From the NCBI GenBank assembly GCA_030650425.1, contig JAUSED010000008.1:132554-196553 (forward strand): a stretch of 64,000 bases of DNA, written 5' to 3'. Below, in pieces: positions 9,001 through 15,000 of this stretch. Each line of letters opens with the position of its first letter. Positions within the stretch are counted from its first letter, which is position 1. Position numbers: made by a program. Origin of the DNA: Candidatus Omnitrophota bacterium (lineage in GTDB: Bacteria > Omnitrophota > Gorgyraeia > Gygaellales > Profunditerraquicolaceae).

Positions 9001-12000
9001 TATTAGGCCTTTCTCTGGCCTTCACTTTGATCCTTTTGTTTTTTGGCCGGTTTATCCTGCATCCGTTTCTGGGTAATATAAAATATTATCCCTATATGTT
9101 CTTTGGCATACTGGGAGCGGCTTTCGTCCCGCTTTTTACTATTTATCAATCTTTGCAACAGGCCCACCACCATGGCAGGAAATTCGGGATAATTAAGTTG
9201 TTAAATTTTATCGTTTTGTCGCTGTTAACGGTTGTGTTTATCGTTATTTTTAAACTTAAAGCGATGGGTCCTATCCTAGCGGTAACCCTGACTTCAGTTT
9301 TATTTTTTTCGTTTGCTCTCTGGGATATGAGGGGAAGGCTTATTTTCGGAATCGACCTTAAATACTTAAAAAAAAGCCTCGCTTACAGCTTACCAATTAT
9401 CCCGCATTCGTTAACGGGATGGCTAGCCGGGTTAGTGGACAGGCTTTTAATTAATAAATTTGTATCTACAGCCGCGGTTGGGATATATAATATAGGTTAT
9501 CTATTCGGGGGGATACTGGGTTTTGTGAATTGCGCTATAAATCAAGCCTATGGCCCTTGGTTTTACGAAGAAATGAAAAAAAACCAGACGGCTAAGGTGA
9601 AAAAGTTTTTTATCTTAGCAATGACTTTGTATATTACGCTGGCTTTGTGGGTTACTATCTTCGCTAAAGAAGCCCTATGGATTATGACTAAGGGCGACTT
9701 CAGGGAATCCTGGAAAGTCGTAGGGCTGCTTTCCTTCGGTAATTTTTTCGGCGGTTATTACTATTTCCTTGCTAATCAGCTCTTTTTTAGCGAAAAAGGG
9801 ACGCGTTATATCGCCATCGCTACGATATCAGCGGCGCTGCTTGGTTTCCTGTTGAATTTGATATTAATCCAAAGATACGGAATAATGGGAGCGGCACTTG
9901 CCATGTTCTTTACTAATTTAATTACTACTCTTTTGGTAGGCTTGTTCGCCCAGCGCCTCCAGCCTGTGGATTGGGATCACCTGCTTATTATCAAGCTGGT
10001 ATTGATAAATGGAGCAGCCTGTATTTTTACTCAGTTTGTTTTATTGCTTTTTGCGCTATCCCTTGGCACAGCTTTAACAATAAAAGTTCTAACCGTTTTA
10101 ATCTGCACTTTTGTTAATTATCGTCTCTGTACTAACAGAGCGGGAGGCTTAGGTATTTTTAATTTTAAGGAGATGGCTCAATGAAAGAAATCTTGGTTAC
10201 CGGGGCAGGAGGGTTTATCGGTTCTCATTTATGCGAAACTTTGGTTAGAGAAGGATATAATGTAAGGGCTATGATACGATATAACTCCGGAAATTGCTGG
10301 GGTTGGCTGGATGTTTCACCATATAGGAAAAAGATTGAGGTGGTTTCAGGAGATATTCGTAATTATGATTCGGTAAAAAGCTCCGTAGAAGGCGTAGATA
10401 CGATTTTTCATCTGGCAGCGCTCATCGGCATACCTTATTCTTACCAAACGCCCGAATCTTATGTAGATACCAATGTTAAGGGCGCTTTAAATATTTTACA
10501 GGCAGCTAGAGAATTAAAAGTAAAAAAAGTGGTTTGCGCCTCAACCAGCGAAATATACGGCACTGCCCAGTTTATTCCGATATCAGAAGAGCATGCTATC
10601 AATCCGCAGTCTCCTTATGCTGCTTCAAAGGCAGCGGCAGATTTTATGGCCCTTTCATTTTACCGTTCTTTTGGTACGCCGGTAACGATCGTGCGGCCTT
10701 TTAATACTTTTGGCCCAAGGCAGTCAGCAAGGGCAATCATCCCGACTATTATCACCCAGGTTTTAGGGGGTTCTAAAAGCGTAAAACTTGGGTTTGTAGA
10801 TTCAATCAGGGATTTTACTTTTATAAATGATACTGTTAGGGGATTCATCGCTGCGGGAGAATCCGGCAATACTATAGGGGAAGTAGTCAATATCGGTTCA
10901 AATAGTGAAATAAAGATTAGAAGCTTGGTGGAGCTAATTGCTAAATTATCGGGTAAAAATATTACCATAGTGACTGAGAACCTGAGGAAGAGGCCTGATC
11001 AAAGTGAGGTCAAAAGGTTAAAGGCTGATATTTCCAAAGCAAAAAAATTACTGAATTGGGTTCCTAAGTATACGTTAGAATCCGGTTTGCAAGAAACAAT
11101 TAAATGGTTTAGAGACTTAAAGAATTTAACCAAATATAAAACGGAGATATATAATGTATAGACGAGCGGTGATTTTAGCCGGCGGTTTGGGAACGAGGTT
11201 AAGCCCTTACACTATCGTATTGCCTAAGCCTTTAATGCCTGTCGGAGAATATCCTATTCTTGAGGTAGTGGTTAGGCAGTTGGCCCATTATAAATTCGAA
11301 CGCATCACCATAGCGGTGAATCACCAGGTGGATCTTATCCATGCTTTTTTTGGCAATGGGAGCAAGTGGGGTGTTCAGATAGATTATTCGATAGAGGATA
11401 AACCTTTGGGTACTATGGGGCCGCTGAAGCTAATCAATGATTTACCGGATAATTTCTTAGTTATGAATGGCGATATTTTAACCGAGTTGGATTACGGTAA
11501 ATTCTTTGATGAGCATCTGAAAAAGGGGAGCCTTTTTACGATTGCCTCTTCGACCCGGGAAGAGGTCTCTGAATTCGGGGTATTGGATGTAAGTAAAACC
11601 GGTTTTTTGGCGGGATTTAAAGAAAAGCCGGTTAAGCGGTATCAAGTGAGTATGGGGATCTACATGGTGAATAAAAAGGTTCTAAGGTATCTACCCGAAG
11701 ATAAGCCTTACGGGTTTGATAAGCTTATGCATGATTTATTAAAATCAAAAGAAAAAGTAAGAGTAAAGAGCCATTCGGGTTACTGGCTGGATATCGGGCG
11801 CCCTGATGATTATGCCCGGGCTATTGAGGAGTTTGATAGGTTAAAGGTTAAACTGTTAAAATAATCTATGGCCCACGCATCGATTCCCATCAACAAAGGA
11901 AACTATTCGCTTGAGACCAGGCAGCGAGAAGAGGCTTTCCATAGGAATTTAGGAGCAGGATGGCTGGGAAAATATAAATTATACAGGGAAAATTGGCAAA

Positions 12001-15000
12001 AGTATCCTCAGCGCCAATTTGTATCTGATTATCCCCTGCTTGTTGATTTGGAGCTTTCCACAGTTTGTAATTTAAGCTGTCCGATGTGCTATACTATTAC
12101 GGATAAATTTAAGCGTAAATCAAAGGTAAAGTTTATGGATTATGGTTTGTTTTGCCGGATAATTGATGAGATATCGGGTAAGGTTCCGGCTATTAGACTT
12201 AGTCTAAGAGGGGAGCCAACCCTGCATCCCCGTTTCCTGGATTGCATTATTTATGCCAAGGAAAAGGGGATCGGAGAGGTTTCTGCGCTTACCAATGGCA
12301 GTAAGCTGACTAAGGGCTTTTCTAAGCGGATTATGCGCGCGGGAATGGATTGGCTGACTATTTCGGTTGATGGTTTAGGCAAGGTATATGAAAACATCAG
12401 AAAACCCTTAAAGTTTAAAGACACATTACGAAAGATCAAAGATTTTAAGGTCTTAAAGAAGAAGGCTAAAACTAATAAGCCGGTGATTAAGATTCAGTCT
12501 GTATGGCCTGCGATACGCCATGATCCGCAGGAGTTCTACAACACTTTCTTTAAATATACGGATTTGATTGCTTTTAATCCGCTTATTGATTATCTGGGCA
12601 AGGATGGGGATATACTTTATGACCTTAATTTTATCTGCCCCCAGCATTATCAGAGGTTGGTAATAGGAAGCGACGGCAAAGCCTTAATCTGCGCGAATGA
12701 TGAATATGGGGCTAATATTATTGGTGATGCGGATAAAGAGAGCATCTATGAAATCTGGCATGGGAAAAAGCTAAGTAAAATACGGGCTATTTTTAAGAAA
12801 AATAACGGTTTTATGCGTTTTCCAATATGTAAGGAATGCTACTTGCCAAGGTTGACTGATGAGAGCGAAAGGGTGAAAATAAAAGGGAGGGAAGTTATTA
12901 TTAAAAATTATCTTGGAAGAAAGCAGCGCGTGGGGCAATAAAAAATGAAAATTCTTGGTATTACTATGGGGATTTGTTCAAGTGCGGCGCTTTTTACAGA
13001 CGGGAAGATTACTGCATCCATATCGGAAGAACGTTTTGTAAAAAAGAAAAATTATGAAGGGTATCCGAAACACGCGGTTGATTTTTGTTTGAATTTTTCC
13101 GGGGTTTCGCCGGACGAACTTGATTATATCGCCTTTGCTTCCAGCAATGTAGATCCCGACTATGTTATCACGCATAGCGCATCAAACAGGACTGTAGCTG
13201 ATTGGATACGCGAAATGCACGAGTATTGGTACCCAATTTTTTATGGCGGTCAGAAACGCGCGTATGTCGATGTATTCAAGGATAAAATAGATTTTAAGCA
13301 ATATCCCGGTAATTTCGAAGGTTTTCCTTTTGGTTCGCCTGACCGGATTAAGTTTTTTACGGAATTCAGAAAAAATATAGTTGTCCGGCATTTAAAGGTA
13401 CCGAGAGAGAAAATAGTAATATGCGAGCATCATTTATCCCACGCTGCTTATGGTTTATTGGGCTGGCCTGAGAGACGGAACAATATGCTTATTTTTACCG
13501 CGGATGGCTTCGGCGATCATTCCAACGCATCCATCCGCAGTTTTGAGAATGATAAATTTACTCTTCTTTATGAAGCTGATATCTGTAATATCGGAAGATT
13601 ATATCGTTATATAACACTACTTTTAGGGATGAAACCCGGTGAGGATGAATATAAGGTGATGGGCCTTGCTCCTTATGCGAAGCCTCTTTCATATCAGAGG
13701 GCCCTCGATATCTTAGAAGATACATTATATTTGGATGGAGTTGTTTTTAAATACAAAACTAAGCCGGTGGATCATTATTTTTGGTTTAGGGAAAAATTTG
13801 AAGGTTTACGATTTGATGCTATTGCCGGCGGCCTGCAAAAATATGTAGAAAACCTTTTGGTTCAGTGGGTTAAGAACGCTGTCAATATATATGGCATATC
13901 TGCTGTTGCATTTAGCGGCGGAGTTTCTCTTAATGTAAAAGCGAATCAGGAGATTCTGCGTTTGGGAGAGACAACATCTTTATCTGTCCCGGGAAGCGGG
14001 GGAGACGAATCCCTGGCCATGGGAGCGATATTTTCGGTTTTACTGAAAAGACGTGTCCCACTTAAAGAAATTGAGCCTGTAGAACATTTATATTTAGGTG
14101 ATAAAGTCAGCGCGGATGAAATAGAGAACTTTATTCAAAAAGAATCTCTTGGTGCCCATTATAAGATAACGCAGATCACCGCGCGCGATATCGCTCAGTT
14201 ATTAGCGCAGGGAGAGATTGTAGGCAGATTTGCCGGTAGAATGGAGTTTGGCCAAAGGGCGCTCGGGAATAGATCTATTTTAGCTAATCCCTCAATGCCG
14301 GAAGTTGTAAAAGTTATTAATGATATTATTAAACAGAGGGATTTCTGGATGCCTTTTGCTCCTACAATCTTATACGAGGATTGTGAGAGATATCTATATA
14401 ATCCTAAAAATATATATTCCCCATTTATGACTATTGCTTTTGATACTAAGCCGCAAGCTCACAAAGATCTAATCGCCGCCCTTCATCCCGCGGATCTTAC
14501 CGCAAGGCCTCAGATGCTTAAAAGATCGGTCAACCCTGATTATTATGATATAATTTCCGAGTTCAAGGCTTTGACCGGCATTGGCGGAGTATTAAATACG
14601 TCATTTAATCTTCACGGCCTGCCTATCGTGCAGTCCTTACCGGATATCCTGCATTTAATGAAGAATTCAAGATTGAAATATGTGGCATTAGAAAATTTAC
14701 TTCTTAAGAAAAAGTAGTAAAATAAGAGGCAGTAATTGGCGGATAAAAAAAATATCTTGGTTACCGGGGCCGCTGGTTTTATCGGCAGGCATTTGGTTAA
14801 AGCGCTAAAGAGCAGGCGTTTCTCAGTATATACATTTGATAAAATTAAGGGTTACGATGTTTGTCGAAAGAATTCCCTTGCTCAATTTTTAAATAAAAGA
14901 ATAGAGATCGTTTTTCATTTAGCCGGTCAGACCTACGTTCCGGATAGTTGGAATAGGGCAGGTAATTTTTATAAAACTAATACCTTAGGCACACAAAATG

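Follow-up and report, generated by a model that had tools for sequence, protein, structure and literature searches.

BtrN, the 2-deoxy-scyllo-inosamine dehydrogenase of butirosin biosynthesis (PDB: 4M7T/4M7S), is a radical SAM (rSAM) enzyme of ~250 amino acids, in which the rSAM core is followed by a twitch domain with four cysteines and a single auxiliary cluster. It acts on a small molecule of carbohydrate-like structure. Other aminoglycoside pathways contain HygY and NeoN, rSAM sugar epimerases whose targets are unactivated C-H bonds, HygY being of the twitch type. Both use a catalytic cysteine as hydrogen donor, and a cysteine returns the hydrogen atom in those rSAM epimerases of sugars and peptides that are known. 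The C3'-deoxygenation of apramycin involves an rSAM and reductase pair, composed of AprD4, an rSAM diol-dehydratase that has a B12-like domain at its N-terminus and lacks a twitch domain, and the NADPH reductase AprD3. To our knowledge, AprD4, DesII and viperin all lack a twitch auxiliary cluster. We likewise know of no rSAM enzyme that takes part in the canonical legionaminic (LegB/C/H/G/I/F) and pseudaminic (PseB/C/H/G/I/F) acid pathways (Schoenhofen et al.), which yield nonulosonic acids (NulO), sialic-acid-like nine-carbon sugars.

The window, a stretch of 64,000 nucleotides from a Candidatus Omnitrophota bacterium, encodes a twitch-type rSAM enzyme of 357 amino acids with an ATG start (11868-12941, forward strand, as are all cassette genes described here). 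The protein is identical to one from a Candidatus Omnitrophota MAG (P0001) and belongs to a widespread, uncharacterised family, for which our literature searches returned no published characterisation. Residues 62-197 match Pfam Radical_SAM (48.5 bits, cutoff 29.5) and residues 257-325 match SPASM (PF13186, 40 bits, cutoff 21.5); as both scores exceed the curated thresholds, the matches are not due to chance. The ligands of the SAM-binding [4Fe-4S] cluster lie in the motif C67-NLS-C71-PM-C74-Y (12066-12089), whose CX3CX2C pattern is invariant in 21/21 sequences, and the Pfam domain search detected no B12-binding domain in the protein. The first-pass annotation had described a non-B12 rSAM enzyme with the motif CNLSCPMCY, placed between a nucleotidyltransferase/dehydratase pair and a NodU/CmcH carbamoyltransferase, and this description holds, with gaps of 3 nt on either side of the gene. 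Residues 1-55 (11868-12032) form a conserved N-terminal extension that has no Pfam match. It carries invariant positions in alignment A1 (P7, K10-G11-N12-Y13, R20, F24, W32, Y36, Y39-R40, W43 and Y55) and is modelled by AlphaFold2 with two helices (18-28 and 33-49). This extension and a conserved C-terminal β-hairpin tail (residues 330-348) distinguish the enzyme from the shorter BtrN.

The C-terminal part of the protein contains exactly four cysteines that are invariant in alignment A1, arranged as C257-X17-C275-X45-C321-X2-C324 in the twitch domain core (12636-12839). In a phmmer alignment they coincide with BtrN C169, C187, C232 and C235, which are spaced X17/X44/X2, so that the two patterns are near-identical. 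Four cysteines that align with the auxiliary-cluster ligands of BtrN indicate a one-cluster twitch domain and not a seven-cysteine SPASM domain. The extra C-terminal cysteines noted in the first-pass annotation are therefore present and align as an auxiliary-cluster pattern, but they account for one cluster only. From its sequence, the enzyme is predicted to hold two [4Fe-4S] clusters, the SAM-cleaving one on C67/C71/C74 and an auxiliary one whose ligands are all cysteines. In BtrN, the four-cysteine auxiliary cluster has a low potential and is the proposed electron acceptor when an alcohol is oxidised by two electrons (PMC9012708).

BtrN is also the best match in a profile search with the C-terminal domain (residues 253-339, E 9e-11) and in a Foldseek search of the PDB with the AlphaFold2 model (pLDDT 84, pTM 0.88), where 4m7t ranks first with an E value of 9.7e-11 and a TM score of 0.70 normalised to BtrN. 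These matches bear out the earlier suggestion of a sugar-type twitch enzyme of the BtrN kind. In the model comparison, SuiB, SkfB, DesII, viperin, anSME and EpeE score just 1-3 orders of magnitude weaker than BtrN, and the chemistry is consequently not fixed by the fold alone. At a sequence identity of ~15%, BtrN-like chemistry is an analogy.

The presence of SuiB, SkfB, anSME and PqqE among the fold matches would also be compatible with an anSME-like or RiPP-type maturase that modifies a pathway enzyme, flagellin or a small precursor peptide, and the best NCBIfam match, TIGR04317, is a cofactor/enzyme maturase family. This match, at 105.7 bits, remains far below its cutoff of 380 and covers the rSAM core only. 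Four C-terminal cysteines are found instead of seven, the Pfam search detected no RRE/PqqD domain, a precursor ORF would not fit into the locus, which has no conserved small ORF either, and the fusion partners of the family are all small-molecule enzymes. We consider a maturase highly improbable.

The genes around the rSAM form a NulO cassette, key context that had gone unrecognised in the first-pass annotation. We compared 80 representative genome loci carrying the rSAM from very diverse bacteria. Upstream lie a LegB-like NDP-HexNAc 4,6-dehydratase (10181-11161; TIGR04180, 464.5 bits, cutoff 475; 69/80 loci) and a sugar-1-phosphate nucleotidyltransferase of the NTP_transferase family (11154-11864; PF00483, 138 bits; 65/80). 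Downstream of the carbamoyltransferase follow a short SDR, a putative 4-ketoreductase and/or epimerase with weak NCBIfam matches to GDP-fucose synthase and heptose epimerase (14736-15599; 68/80), and a NeuB-family nonulosonic acid synthase with a SAF domain (15602-16633; PF03102, 280 bits; 75/80). The latter belongs to a non-canonical clade and scores below the curated cutoffs of TIGR03569 (356 against 399.65 bits) and PseI (289 against 340.25 bits). They are succeeded by a CMP-nonulosonate synthetase (CTP_transf_3; 16615-17340; 67/80), a PseG-like NDP-sugar hydrolase that matches nearly the full TIGR03590 model at 73.5 bits against a cutoff of 153.55 (17346-18311; 69/80), a WbqC-family protein (18296-18991; PF08889, 233 bits; 66/80), whose model gave no significant match in the PDB, and a PIG-L/LmbE-family de-N-acetylase (18992-19618; PF02585; 63/80). 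A MptE-like/Maf-like protein, a putative NulO transferase (19638-20519; PF01973, 38.8 bits; 47/80), and a TIGR04325 (LIC12133-family) methyltransferase (20503-21324; 195.7 bits against a cutoff of 80; 21/80) complete the row.

The complete set of nine genes, namely LegB-like, NTP-transferase, SDR, rSAM, NeuB, CMP-synthetase, PseG-like, WbqC and PIG-L, is present in 57 of the 80 loci, in a conserved order with median gaps of 1-3 nt. The cassette shares the dehydratase, hydrolase, NeuB-family enzyme, CMP-synthetase and Maf-like protein with the canonical legionaminic and pseudaminic pathways. It differs from them in the gain of the rSAM, an extra SDR, WbqC and PIG-L, in that neither an aminotransferase nor an N-acetyltransferase is among its conserved members, and in that none of its NeuB, PseG-like and LegB-like proteins reaches the curated equivalog cutoff. 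The rSAM itself is the most uniformly conserved member, with a lowest identity of 52.6% among the 80 loci, and in variant cassettes NeuB, WbqC, PIG-L and the PseG-like protein drop to 23-34% identity. Gene fusions join the rSAM to NeuB (L032, L036, P0361), to the SDR (P0036, P0106, P0362) and to a methyltransferase (P0365); the NeuB::rSAM fusions keep the N-terminal extension intact. All recurrent neighbours and fusion partners are sugar-pathway enzymes. The rSAM is a fixed part of the cassette. It is vertically conserved and a core enzyme of a non-canonical NulO pathway that is widespread. That it serves as a NulO-pathway enzyme we regard as very probable, and its substrate is likely to be a small-molecule sugar.

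In the proposed pathway, the NTP-transferase would make an NDP-HexNAc, which the LegB-like enzyme would dehydrate at positions 4 and 6. The SDR would reduce the dehydrated intermediate, with transamination as the substitute in a variant cassette. The PseG-like enzyme would remove the nucleotide, and the NeuB-type synthase would condense the sugar with PEP before CMP activation. An exchange of the N-acyl group is probably the task of PIG-L and WbqC. The rSAM is expected to act near the NeuB step, where it would abstract hydrogen from a C-H bond of a sugar intermediate by radical chemistry. We lean, by a modest degree, towards this overall account of a twitch rSAM at the core of the NulO pathway, with BtrN-like chemistry as the preferred form.

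For the reaction itself, we tentatively propose a BtrN-type dehydrogenation of an alcohol to a ketone, by analogy. The 5'-deoxyadenosyl radical would take the hydrogen from the carbinol carbon of a secondary alcohol, with the second electron passing to the auxiliary cluster; the resulting ketone may be kept or be stereospecifically reduced by the partner SDR. The alignment is consistent with such a dehydrogenase, as the seven cluster ligands are the only invariant cysteines in A1. Two observations run counter to it. Unlike the BtrN/BtrS pair of the aminoglycoside pathway, the NulO cassette conserves no dedicated aminotransferase partner to use the ketone, and the candidate ketone-reducing SDR of the 14736 type is absent from Lachnospiraceae-type loci and from L086-L089.

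The cysteine pattern also bears on a radical sugar epimerase like NeoN, HygY or AviX12, which would remove hydrogen from an unactivated stereocentre of a hexose or NulO and return it on the opposite face. Such an enzyme would supply an inversion at C2 or C5 (or at C8 or C4 of the NulO) that no other cassette member obviously provides. The dehydratase of the cassette is LegB-like (retaining type), its hydrolase is PseG-like (non-epimerising) and no NeuC/LegG-type 2-epimerase is present, so that the pathway may lack a stereochemical step. The title of a HygY paper cited in PMC10991966 names a twitch rSAM sugar epimerase, and EpeE, an epimerase of peptides, appears in the list of fold matches. 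Against a cysteine-dependent epimerase stands the lack of an invariant cysteine of the HygY/NeoN kind outside the cluster ligands, C96 and C126 of the window protein being replaced in several orthologs. The many conserved tyrosines of the family could be hydrogen-atom donors in an epimerase. The SDR, with its weak matches to GDP-fucose synthase and heptose epimerase, is another candidate for an epimerase/reductase. We judge epimerisation unlikely, and about equally so a radical dehydratase or deaminase like AprD4, DesII or viperin.

The latter would abstract hydrogen beside a leaving hydroxyl group or an ammonium group freed by PIG-L, eliminate it to a deoxy-keto sugar and hand this to the SDR for reduction, giving a net deoxygenation or deamination and an extra-deoxy NulO. 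The rSAM and SDR resemble the AprD4/AprD3 pair: the SDR is the upstream neighbour of the rSAM in 45 of 79 instances and is recurrently fused to it. PIG-L is conserved in the cassette, and DesII and viperins appear among both fold and sequence matches. However, the three model enzymes lack the twitch cluster, the rSAM persists without the 14736-type SDR in type-2 cassettes and L086-L089, and the SDR has an obvious separate role as 4-ketoreductase after LegB. NF033070 (rSAM_AprD4) is not among the listed NCBIfam matches of the window enzyme.

Every cassette type pairs the rSAM with a deacylase-like protein and an acyl-activating module, be it PIG-L with WbqC, DUF4910 with a DltA-like adenylation protein and an AAC(3)-like transferase, or DUF4910 with c51. 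Together with a D-2-hydroxyacid dehydrogenase fused to a distant rSAM relative, this could suggest that the rSAM works on the N-acyl substituent taking the place of the N-acetyl group, by modifying it or helping to assemble it, and not on the sugar skeleton. Yet the rSAM is still 47-56% identical between cassette types whose acyl modules differ completely, which points to one shared substrate, independent of the particular acyl group, and the recurrent fusion partners are NeuB and the SDR, not acyl-handling enzymes. We hold an acyl-directed role to be improbable.

The carbamoyltransferase next to the rSAM (12945-14717) is a complete NodU/CmcH-family protein with the two-domain architecture of NodU, CmcH and TobZ (Carbam_trans_N, 106 bits; Carbam_trans_C, 190 bits), reaching 96.8 bits with the NodU equivalog model, whose cutoff is 1000. 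The first-pass annotation had suggested that the rSAM could make an unusual keto or epimerised sugar for O-carbamoylation by this neighbour, and the comparison across genomes largely refutes such a pairing. An orthologous carbamoyltransferase occurs in 0/80 representative loci; the sole homolog (L039) shares 32% identity and is encoded upstream, on the other strand. The slot 3' of the rSAM is mostly empty or filled by an O-acetyltransferase-like protein: among 79 instances it holds an LbH acetyltransferase in 18 and a methyltransferase in 6, and NeuB follows directly in 23. Three close relatives carry, respectively, a hexapeptide acetyltransferase, a 74-aa remnant ORF and a carbamoyltransferase in this position. 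Given these contents, providing a site for carbamoylation is not the purpose of the rSAM, and a dedicated partnership seems very doubtful despite the 3-nt gap.

The window carbamoyltransferase nevertheless belongs to a subclade (P0122-P0130, 56-78% identical to it) that, unlike NodU, CmcH and TobZ, is specific to NulO cassettes, all 5 members examined sitting in rSAM/WbqC/NeuB/PIG-L cassettes. One locus (L085) repeats the adjacency, whereas in L086-L089 the carbamoyltransferase lies at a distance of 3-5 genes from the rSAM. We read the carbamoyltransferase as an occasional add-on for optional tailoring. Because its subclade was encountered only in such cassettes, O-carbamoylation of the cassette product is plausible here, and the enzyme probably acts on the finished sugar in the host organism. 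We know of no earlier description of a nonulosonic acid that is carbamoylated. Elsewhere in the window, the B12-rSAM genes mentioned in the first-pass annotation are found at 5248-6627, 29646-31208 and 41378-42775, the first being the only one to match NF033070, and another twitch/SPASM rSAM is encoded at 24253-25347.

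The radical SAM gene (rSAM; 11868-12941, + strand) starts with ATG and encodes a protein of 357 amino acids. Upstream, a LegB-like 4,6-dehydratase gene (10181-11161) overlaps an NTP_transferase gene (11154-11864) whose end lies 3 nt before rSAM, and a complete, two-domain NodU/CmcH-type carbamoyltransferase gene (12945-14717) starts 3 nt downstream. The protein carries the motif C67-NLS-C71-PM-C74-Y. Its Pfam domains are Radical_SAM (PF04055, residues 62-197, 48.5 bits with a curated cutoff of 29.5) and the SPASM iron-sulfur domain (residues 257-325, 40 bits with a cutoff of 21.5), with no B12-binding domain or any other match. 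The first-pass annotation, which had named this ORF, a CNLSCPMCY-type motif, the lack of a B12 domain and a position between a nucleotidyltransferase/dehydratase pair and a carbamoyltransferase, described the gene correctly. As judged from the sequence, the CX3CX2C motif for the SAM-cleaving [4Fe-4S] cluster and a predicted partial TIM-barrel core place the protein in the radical SAM superfamily.

The protein contains nine Cys residues (67, 71, 74, 96, 126, 257, 275, 321 and 324). Seven of them, namely the triad C67/C71/C74 together with C257, C275, C321 and C324, are invariant when 21 orthologs of different phyla (57-80% identical) are aligned; several orthologs have F, T or A in place of C126, or R or K in place of C96. 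A full SPASM domain is defined by the seven-Cys motif CX9-15GX4C...CX2CX5CX3C...C, which ligates AuxI and AuxII. This signature is absent because no Cys follows C324, leaving four Cys C-terminal to the core, and each of the 21 orthologs shows the same. Twitch domains are picked up by the Pfam SPASM model as well. The proposal of a SPASM-type enzyme with extra Cys clusters holds for the above-cutoff HMM match and narrows to four Cys, one auxiliary site and a twitch in place of a full SPASM domain. The four C-terminal Cys, whose absence would have spoken against an auxiliary cluster, align exactly to BtrN (4M7S) chain positions 169, 187, 232 and 235 (phmmer), with a spacing of X17/X45/X2 in rSAM versus X17/X44/X2 in BtrN, and the family profile matches BtrN over residues 253-339 (E 9e-11). 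A twitch is a shortened SPASM domain whose Cys residues ligate only one auxiliary [4Fe-4S] cluster (PMC9012708); by this definition, rSAM is a twitch enzyme of BtrN type with predicted cluster ligands.

The fold leads to the same enzyme. The AlphaFold model of rSAM (pLDDT 84, pTM 0.88) finds BtrN (4M7T) as its best PDB match in Foldseek (E 9.7e-11, TM 0.70 normalised to BtrN), followed by SuiB, GDGT-MAS, SkfB, DesII, viperins, anSME and EpeE; all matches at E<=1e-7 are rSAM enzymes. The data thus establish ligands for the SAM cluster and for one four-Cys auxiliary cluster on a BtrN-like fold. The architecture, and probably also the use of the auxiliary cluster, resembles that of BtrN; the two proteins differ in pathway, share only ~15% identity, and rSAM has extra N- and C-terminal elements. 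The N-terminal extension of 55 amino acids, predicted as two helices, is strongly conserved (P7, KGNY 10-13, R20, F24, W32, Y36, YR 39-40, W43, Y55), as is a C-terminal beta-hairpin tail. Orthology to BtrN as a DOIA dehydrogenase was rejected on the basis of this low identity and of the nonulosonic acid (NulO) context, found instead of butirosin/2-deoxystreptamine genes and a BtrS-type aminotransferase. An anSME was rejected as well, given the four Cys only, the lack of a sulfatase in the window and the rank below BtrN in the fold search. A peptide maturase with an adjacent precursor, the outcome against which the first-pass annotation had set its sugar enzyme, was not found: rSAM has no RRE (PqqD-like) domain, nor does the window contain one, and the 3-nt flanking gaps leave no room for a precursor gene, all small ORFs there lying inside larger genes. 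No NCBIfam model reaches its cutoff for rSAM (best TIGR04317, 105.7 versus 380 bits; the N-terminal-twitch model, 70 versus 170), and the protein is therefore not assignable to any named equivalog.

The window gene is one ordinary member of a large, unusually well conserved family that appears uncharacterised. An identical protein (P0001) from a Candidatus Omnitrophota MAG, on a 288-kb contig, is named only 'SPASM domain-containing protein' at NCBI. The best 120 of 2185 matches (90%-identity clusters) all align over the full length at 57-100% identity; their sources are Omnitrophota, Elusimicrobia, Deltaproteobacteria, Bacteroidales, Clostridium saccharoperbutylacetonicum, Sporomusaceae and Dorea. 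A scan with one genome per species confirmed 209 rSAM loci. The best 80 of these (53-64% identity) include many Rhizobium species, Neorhizobium, Bradyrhizobium, Herbaspirillum, Nitrospira, Geobacter, Leptospiraceae, Campylobacterales and Brocadiaceae, as well as cultured Lachnospiraceae such as Sporofaciens and Schaedlerella. A 50%-identity representative library yielded 181 clusters at E<=1e-30, and a plasmid collection two true orthologs, in Neorhizobium and Rhizobium sp. WYJ-E13, both on unannotated records. The same collection holds distant homologs (23-29% identity) on ~36-kb plasmids of Brachyspira hyodysenteriae (H3-H11), one of which matches rSAM in up to five places, and on plasmids of Lawsonia intracellularis (H15-H17). 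Sugar-associated twitch rSAMs seem to form a broader, unexplored group.

The genomic context of rSAM was determined by two routes that agree, a tblastn comparison of the window proteins with 80 representative loci and a clustering of all locus ORFs (simple longest-ORF calls) without reference to the window. Counted within 10 kb and with one genome per species, the 80 loci contain a NeuB-family synthase in 75 cases, a LegB-like dehydratase and a PseG-like protein in 69 each, a short SDR in 68, a CMP-type cytidylyltransferase in 67, WbqC in 66, an NTP-transferase in 65 and a PIG-L deacetylase in 63. These eight genes and rSAM form a nine-gene core that is complete in 57/80 loci; further frequent partners are an MptE/Maf-like protein (47/80) and a TIGR04325 methyltransferase (21/80). 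The usual order is LegB-NTP-SDR-rSAM-NeuB-CMP-PseG-like-WbqC-PIG-L-Maf, with median gaps of 1 nt upstream and 3 nt downstream of rSAM. The window shows a variant, LegB-NTP-rSAM-[carbamoyltransferase]-SDR-NeuB-..., which recurs without the carbamoyltransferase in four loci (L001, L010, L022, L023). rSAM is thus a fixed component and functional member of a NulO biosynthesis cassette whose genes are presumably co-transcribed.

The cassette is of NulO biosynthesis type, and it is non-canonical. It resembles the Leg and Pse pathways but fails their equivalog tests: the window's scores for the LegB, NeuB, PseI and PseG models stay short of equivalog level (LegB 464.5 <475, NeuB 356 <399.65, PseI 289 <340.25, PseG 73.5 <153.55), and the LegB-like, PseG-like and O-acetyltransferase-like assignments rest on such sub-threshold HMM scores. 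The PseG-like protein of the window, for instance, has 321 amino acids and is an NDP-sugar hydrolase by NCBIfam TIGR03590 at 73.5 bits with a cutoff of 153.55. The cassette has no NeuC/LegG-type 2-epimerase, and neither a LegH/PseH-type N-acetyltransferase nor an aminotransferase is conserved in its core; a LegC-like aminotransferase (321.9 versus 420 bits) occurs outside the core in 41/80 loci. Conversely, rSAM, the extra SDR, WbqC and PIG-L are missing from the Leg and Pse pathways. To our knowledge, the published Neu, Leg, Pse and Aci pathways contain no radical SAM enzyme, and the NulO routes that we know of use conventional two-electron enzymes only. Our full-text literature search found no paper linking radical SAM enzymes with NulO, NeuB or flagellin glycosylation. 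In Campylobacter fetus subsp. testudinum, two phase-variable (poly-G) rSAM genes of the 'MoaA/NifB/PqqE/SkfB family' (CFT03427_1545 and _1558) are listed beside SDR, methyltransferase and formyltransferase-domain genes (PMC6321876).

A DegT aminotransferase in the window (21781-22911), which follows a cupin gene, was considered as a core member and rejected. Its counterpart in Rhizobium loci is grouped with RmlA-like and FdtA-like cupin genes, on the other side of Wzm/Wzt from the cassette, in what looks like a separate 3-amino-sugar pathway; the cupin and DegT pair of the window (21345-22911) probably belongs to such a pathway too. In several Rhizobium loci (e.g. L045, L053, L055) the cassette directly adjoins Wzm/Wzt ABC O-antigen export genes, and the Wzt protein there, at 457 amino acids, is large enough to include an extension at its C-terminus. 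In some strains of R. leguminosarum, R. etli and R. phaseoli, the NulO may therefore form part of the O-antigen or cap it. WbqC (18296-18991, PF08889) is as conserved as rSAM, with 59-87% identity over the best 120 matches, and we found no characterisation of it in the literature. Its AF2 model is confident (pLDDT 91.9), yet a PDB search with it gave no significant match; the best of the weak matches (E 0.04-0.3) are all HUP-type nucleotide-binding folds, namely TyrRS, ATP sulfurylase, PPAT and LarE. WbqC may be an ATP-using acyl ligase that swaps the N-acyl group together with PIG-L.

The first-pass annotation had paired rSAM with the adjacent carbamoyltransferase and proposed that rSAM generates a keto or epimerised sugar which is then O-carbamoylated. 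Plausible as it is, this pairing appears to be wrong. None of the 80 representative loci holds an orthologous carbamoyltransferase, the sole homolog (L039, 32% identity) lying upstream on the opposite strand. Directly downstream of the 79 rSAM instances, we counted 23 NeuB, 18 hexapeptide acyltransferases, 10 CMP-synthetases and 6 methyltransferases. The acyltransferases of this slot best match the O-acetyltransferases WbbJ, LacA and WcaF, and more weakly NeuD/PglB/VioB; in one locus (L078) acyltransferase and CMP-synthetase form a single fused protein. Three close relatives of the window's rSAM illustrate the exchange: directly after rSAM, L082 (rSAM 80% identity) has a 188-aa hexapeptide acyltransferase, L085 (67%) a carbamoyltransferase 78% identical to that of the window, and L083 (72%) a 74-aa ORF (9058-9282) similar to the N-terminus of the slot's acyltransferase. 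By its sequence, the 74-aa ORF is probably a decayed acyltransferase remnant and not a peptide precursor; it includes DFDRASYRNRGGYYQRL. We read the position after rSAM as a variable tailoring slot for acetyl, methyl, carbamoyl or nothing.

The carbamoyltransferase itself belongs to a subclade of about nine 90%-identity clusters (P0122-P0130) that are 56-78% identical to it, the next homologs being at <=50%. In all five subclade contigs examined, it occurs within cassettes with the rSAM family, WbqC, NeuB and PIG-L; in four of the variant loci (L086-L089) it lies three to five genes from rSAM. With 0/80 ortholog loci on one side and 5/5 subclade members in cassettes on the other, the dependence thus runs one way, from the carbamoyltransferase to the cassette and not in reverse. 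As an optional enzyme, the carbamoyltransferase would O-carbamoylate the sugar that the cassette makes, and the specific proposal that rSAM primes the sugar for carbamoylation is largely unsupported and, to our mind, quite improbable. GC content across the carbamoyltransferase is flat (0.37-0.43), with no sign of recent insertion, which is uninformative.

Cassette variants reveal which partners of rSAM are constant. A Lachnospiraceae-type cassette (L017, L026, L032, L033, L035, L036; also L050 and L072) combines a CMP-synthetase::PseG fusion, NeuB, rSAM and a DUF4910 aminopeptidase-like protein, with either a DltA-like adenylation enzyme plus an AAC(3)-like transferase or else an unassigned 330-aa protein added. 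The L086-L089 cassette comprises a DegT aminotransferase, a LegB-like SDR, PIG-L, CMP-synthetase, rSAM, WbqC, a SAF-less NeuB and a PseG-like gene. Across cassette types, rSAM stays 46-56% identical, with values falling to 34-36% for NeuB, 39% for WbqC, 28% for the PseG-like protein and 25% for PIG-L. Three partners of rSAM thus prove constant: NeuB, the PseG-like hydrolase and the CMP-synthetase. The short NeuB of L086-L089 (contigs from SRR22387937, SRR22388139, SRR22388351 and SRR22387916) has 291-294 amino acids and no SAF domain, and these loci also carry HisF/HisH-like genes, a PFTS_polysacc protein, extra SPASM and B12 rSAMs and a carbamoyltransferase.

Gene fusions point the same way. 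rSAM is fused to NeuB+SAF in L032 (8954-11074), L036 (7976-10096) and protein P0361, to an SDR of the type found in the window at 14736-15599 in three proteins (P0036, P0106, P0362), and to a class-I methyltransferase in P0365. Distant relatives (34-36% identity) are fused to CTP_transf_3, a D-2-hydroxyacid-dehydrogenase and an FkbM-methyltransferase (P0419, P0433 and P0393). The link of rSAM to the NeuB step is tight, and in many cases it extends to the SDR. The fusion partners found include neither a peptide nor a protein-maturation factor, which, together with the missing precursor gene and RRE domain, makes a protein or peptide maturase highly improbable.

The pathway would begin with an NDP-HexNAc, which the LegB-like enzyme would probably convert to a 4-keto-6-deoxy sugar. 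Reduction of the 4-keto intermediate by the SDR in the window type and its transamination in the L086-L089 type look like alternative fates, to be followed by PseG-like NDP hydrolysis, NeuB condensation with PEP and CMP activation; the N-acyl group would probably be exchanged by PIG-L and WbqC. rSAM persists whatever the C4 fate and the acyl module, so that its target should be a portion of the molecule which all variants share; a modification of the N-acyl group by rSAM we regard as improbable. By analogy, we tentatively favour an oxidation of BtrN type, in which a secondary alcohol would lose two electrons and the fully ligated auxiliary cluster would act as electron acceptor, a role proposed for that of BtrN (PMC9012708). 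Two features favour such a dehydrogenase: the auxiliary site is BtrN-like and not MoaA-like, the latter having three Cys and an open iron, and rSAM offers no invariant spare Cys as H donor. In HygY, mutation of a single Cys reveals dehydrogenase activity, according to the title of a paper cited in PMC10991966. The lack of a 2- or 5-epimerase in the cassette would suit an epimerisation by rSAM, but a Cys-dependent epimerase of the HygY/NeoN/EpeE type is at odds with the absence of an invariant Cys beyond the 3+4 ligands, and an epimerase with Tyr as H donor seems unlikely. We are equally doubtful of an AprD4/DesII-like dehydratase or deaminase, whose keto product would be reduced by the fused SDR. 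All of these mechanistic statements, including the preferred BtrN-type oxidation, are analogies.

Flagella, capsules and O-antigens carry sialic, legionaminic and pseudaminic acids, which influence how bacteria are recognised by the immune system and by phages. The presence in a NulO cassette of a strongly conserved rSAM, in some cases as one protein with the synthase, implies a step of new chemistry and probably also a sugar skeleton that is new; what is new here is a twitch rSAM recruited to a pathway class without described radical chemistry. We see an even chance that the family performs a radical step new to NulO biosynthesis, in which an unactivated position is oxidised, inverted or deoxygenated, and defines a fourth major sialic-acid-like class, with the window sugar also O-carbamoylated. 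If so, the makers of this class would be Rhizobium, with Wzm/Wzt O-antigen export genes adjacent, gut Lachnospiraceae, with Maf-like genes adjacent, Nitrospira, Geobacter, Elusimicrobia and Omnitrophota, and the window sugar would be the first carbamoylated nonulosonic acid. Carriers of the cassette include root symbionts and abundant gut Firmicutes as well as many uncultured phyla, and cultured hosts (Rhizobium, Clostridium) make the family directly testable. Once characterised, it would lengthen the short list of rSAM sugar chemistries and improve the annotation of a family now labelled only 'radical SAM/SPASM domain protein', with at least 120 clusters (90% identity) that match at >=57% identity (the best 120 of 2185 matches).

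Other radical SAM genes accompany the cassette. A second rSAM with a SPASM/twitch domain (24253-25347, 364 amino acids) was rejected as a duplicate, with 21% identity to rSAM and no orthologs in the 80 loci. L082 and L083 hold other distant twitch rSAMs inserted between WbqC and PIG-L. Three B12-binding rSAMs (5248-6627, 29646-31208, 41378-42775), among at least eight class-I methyltransferases, are probably C-methyltransferases; B12-rSAM genes also occur near the cassette in L003, L004, L007, L018, L050, L070, L082 and L089. Over positions 1-64000, every domain-bearing ORF of at least 100-120 amino acids is on the + strand, and the glycan genes include a flippase, three Wzy_C-like proteins, a priming Bac_transf transferase, WecG/TagA and many glycosyltransferases, along with several separate sugar-nucleotide modules. 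The window as a whole looks like a single 64-kb glycan locus. Proteins of 470, 701 and 692 amino acids (7322-8734, 38544-40649 and 44033-46111) have no Pfam or NCBIfam match; a homolog of the 470-aa protein, with 469 amino acids and likewise no Pfam match, is syntenic in L082. A GHMP kinase, an NTP-transferase, a HAD phosphatase and a transaldolase/FSA-family aldolase (35359-38526), preceded by a GFO/IDH/MocA oxidoreductase and an SDR, may provide a route to an unusual activated sugar.
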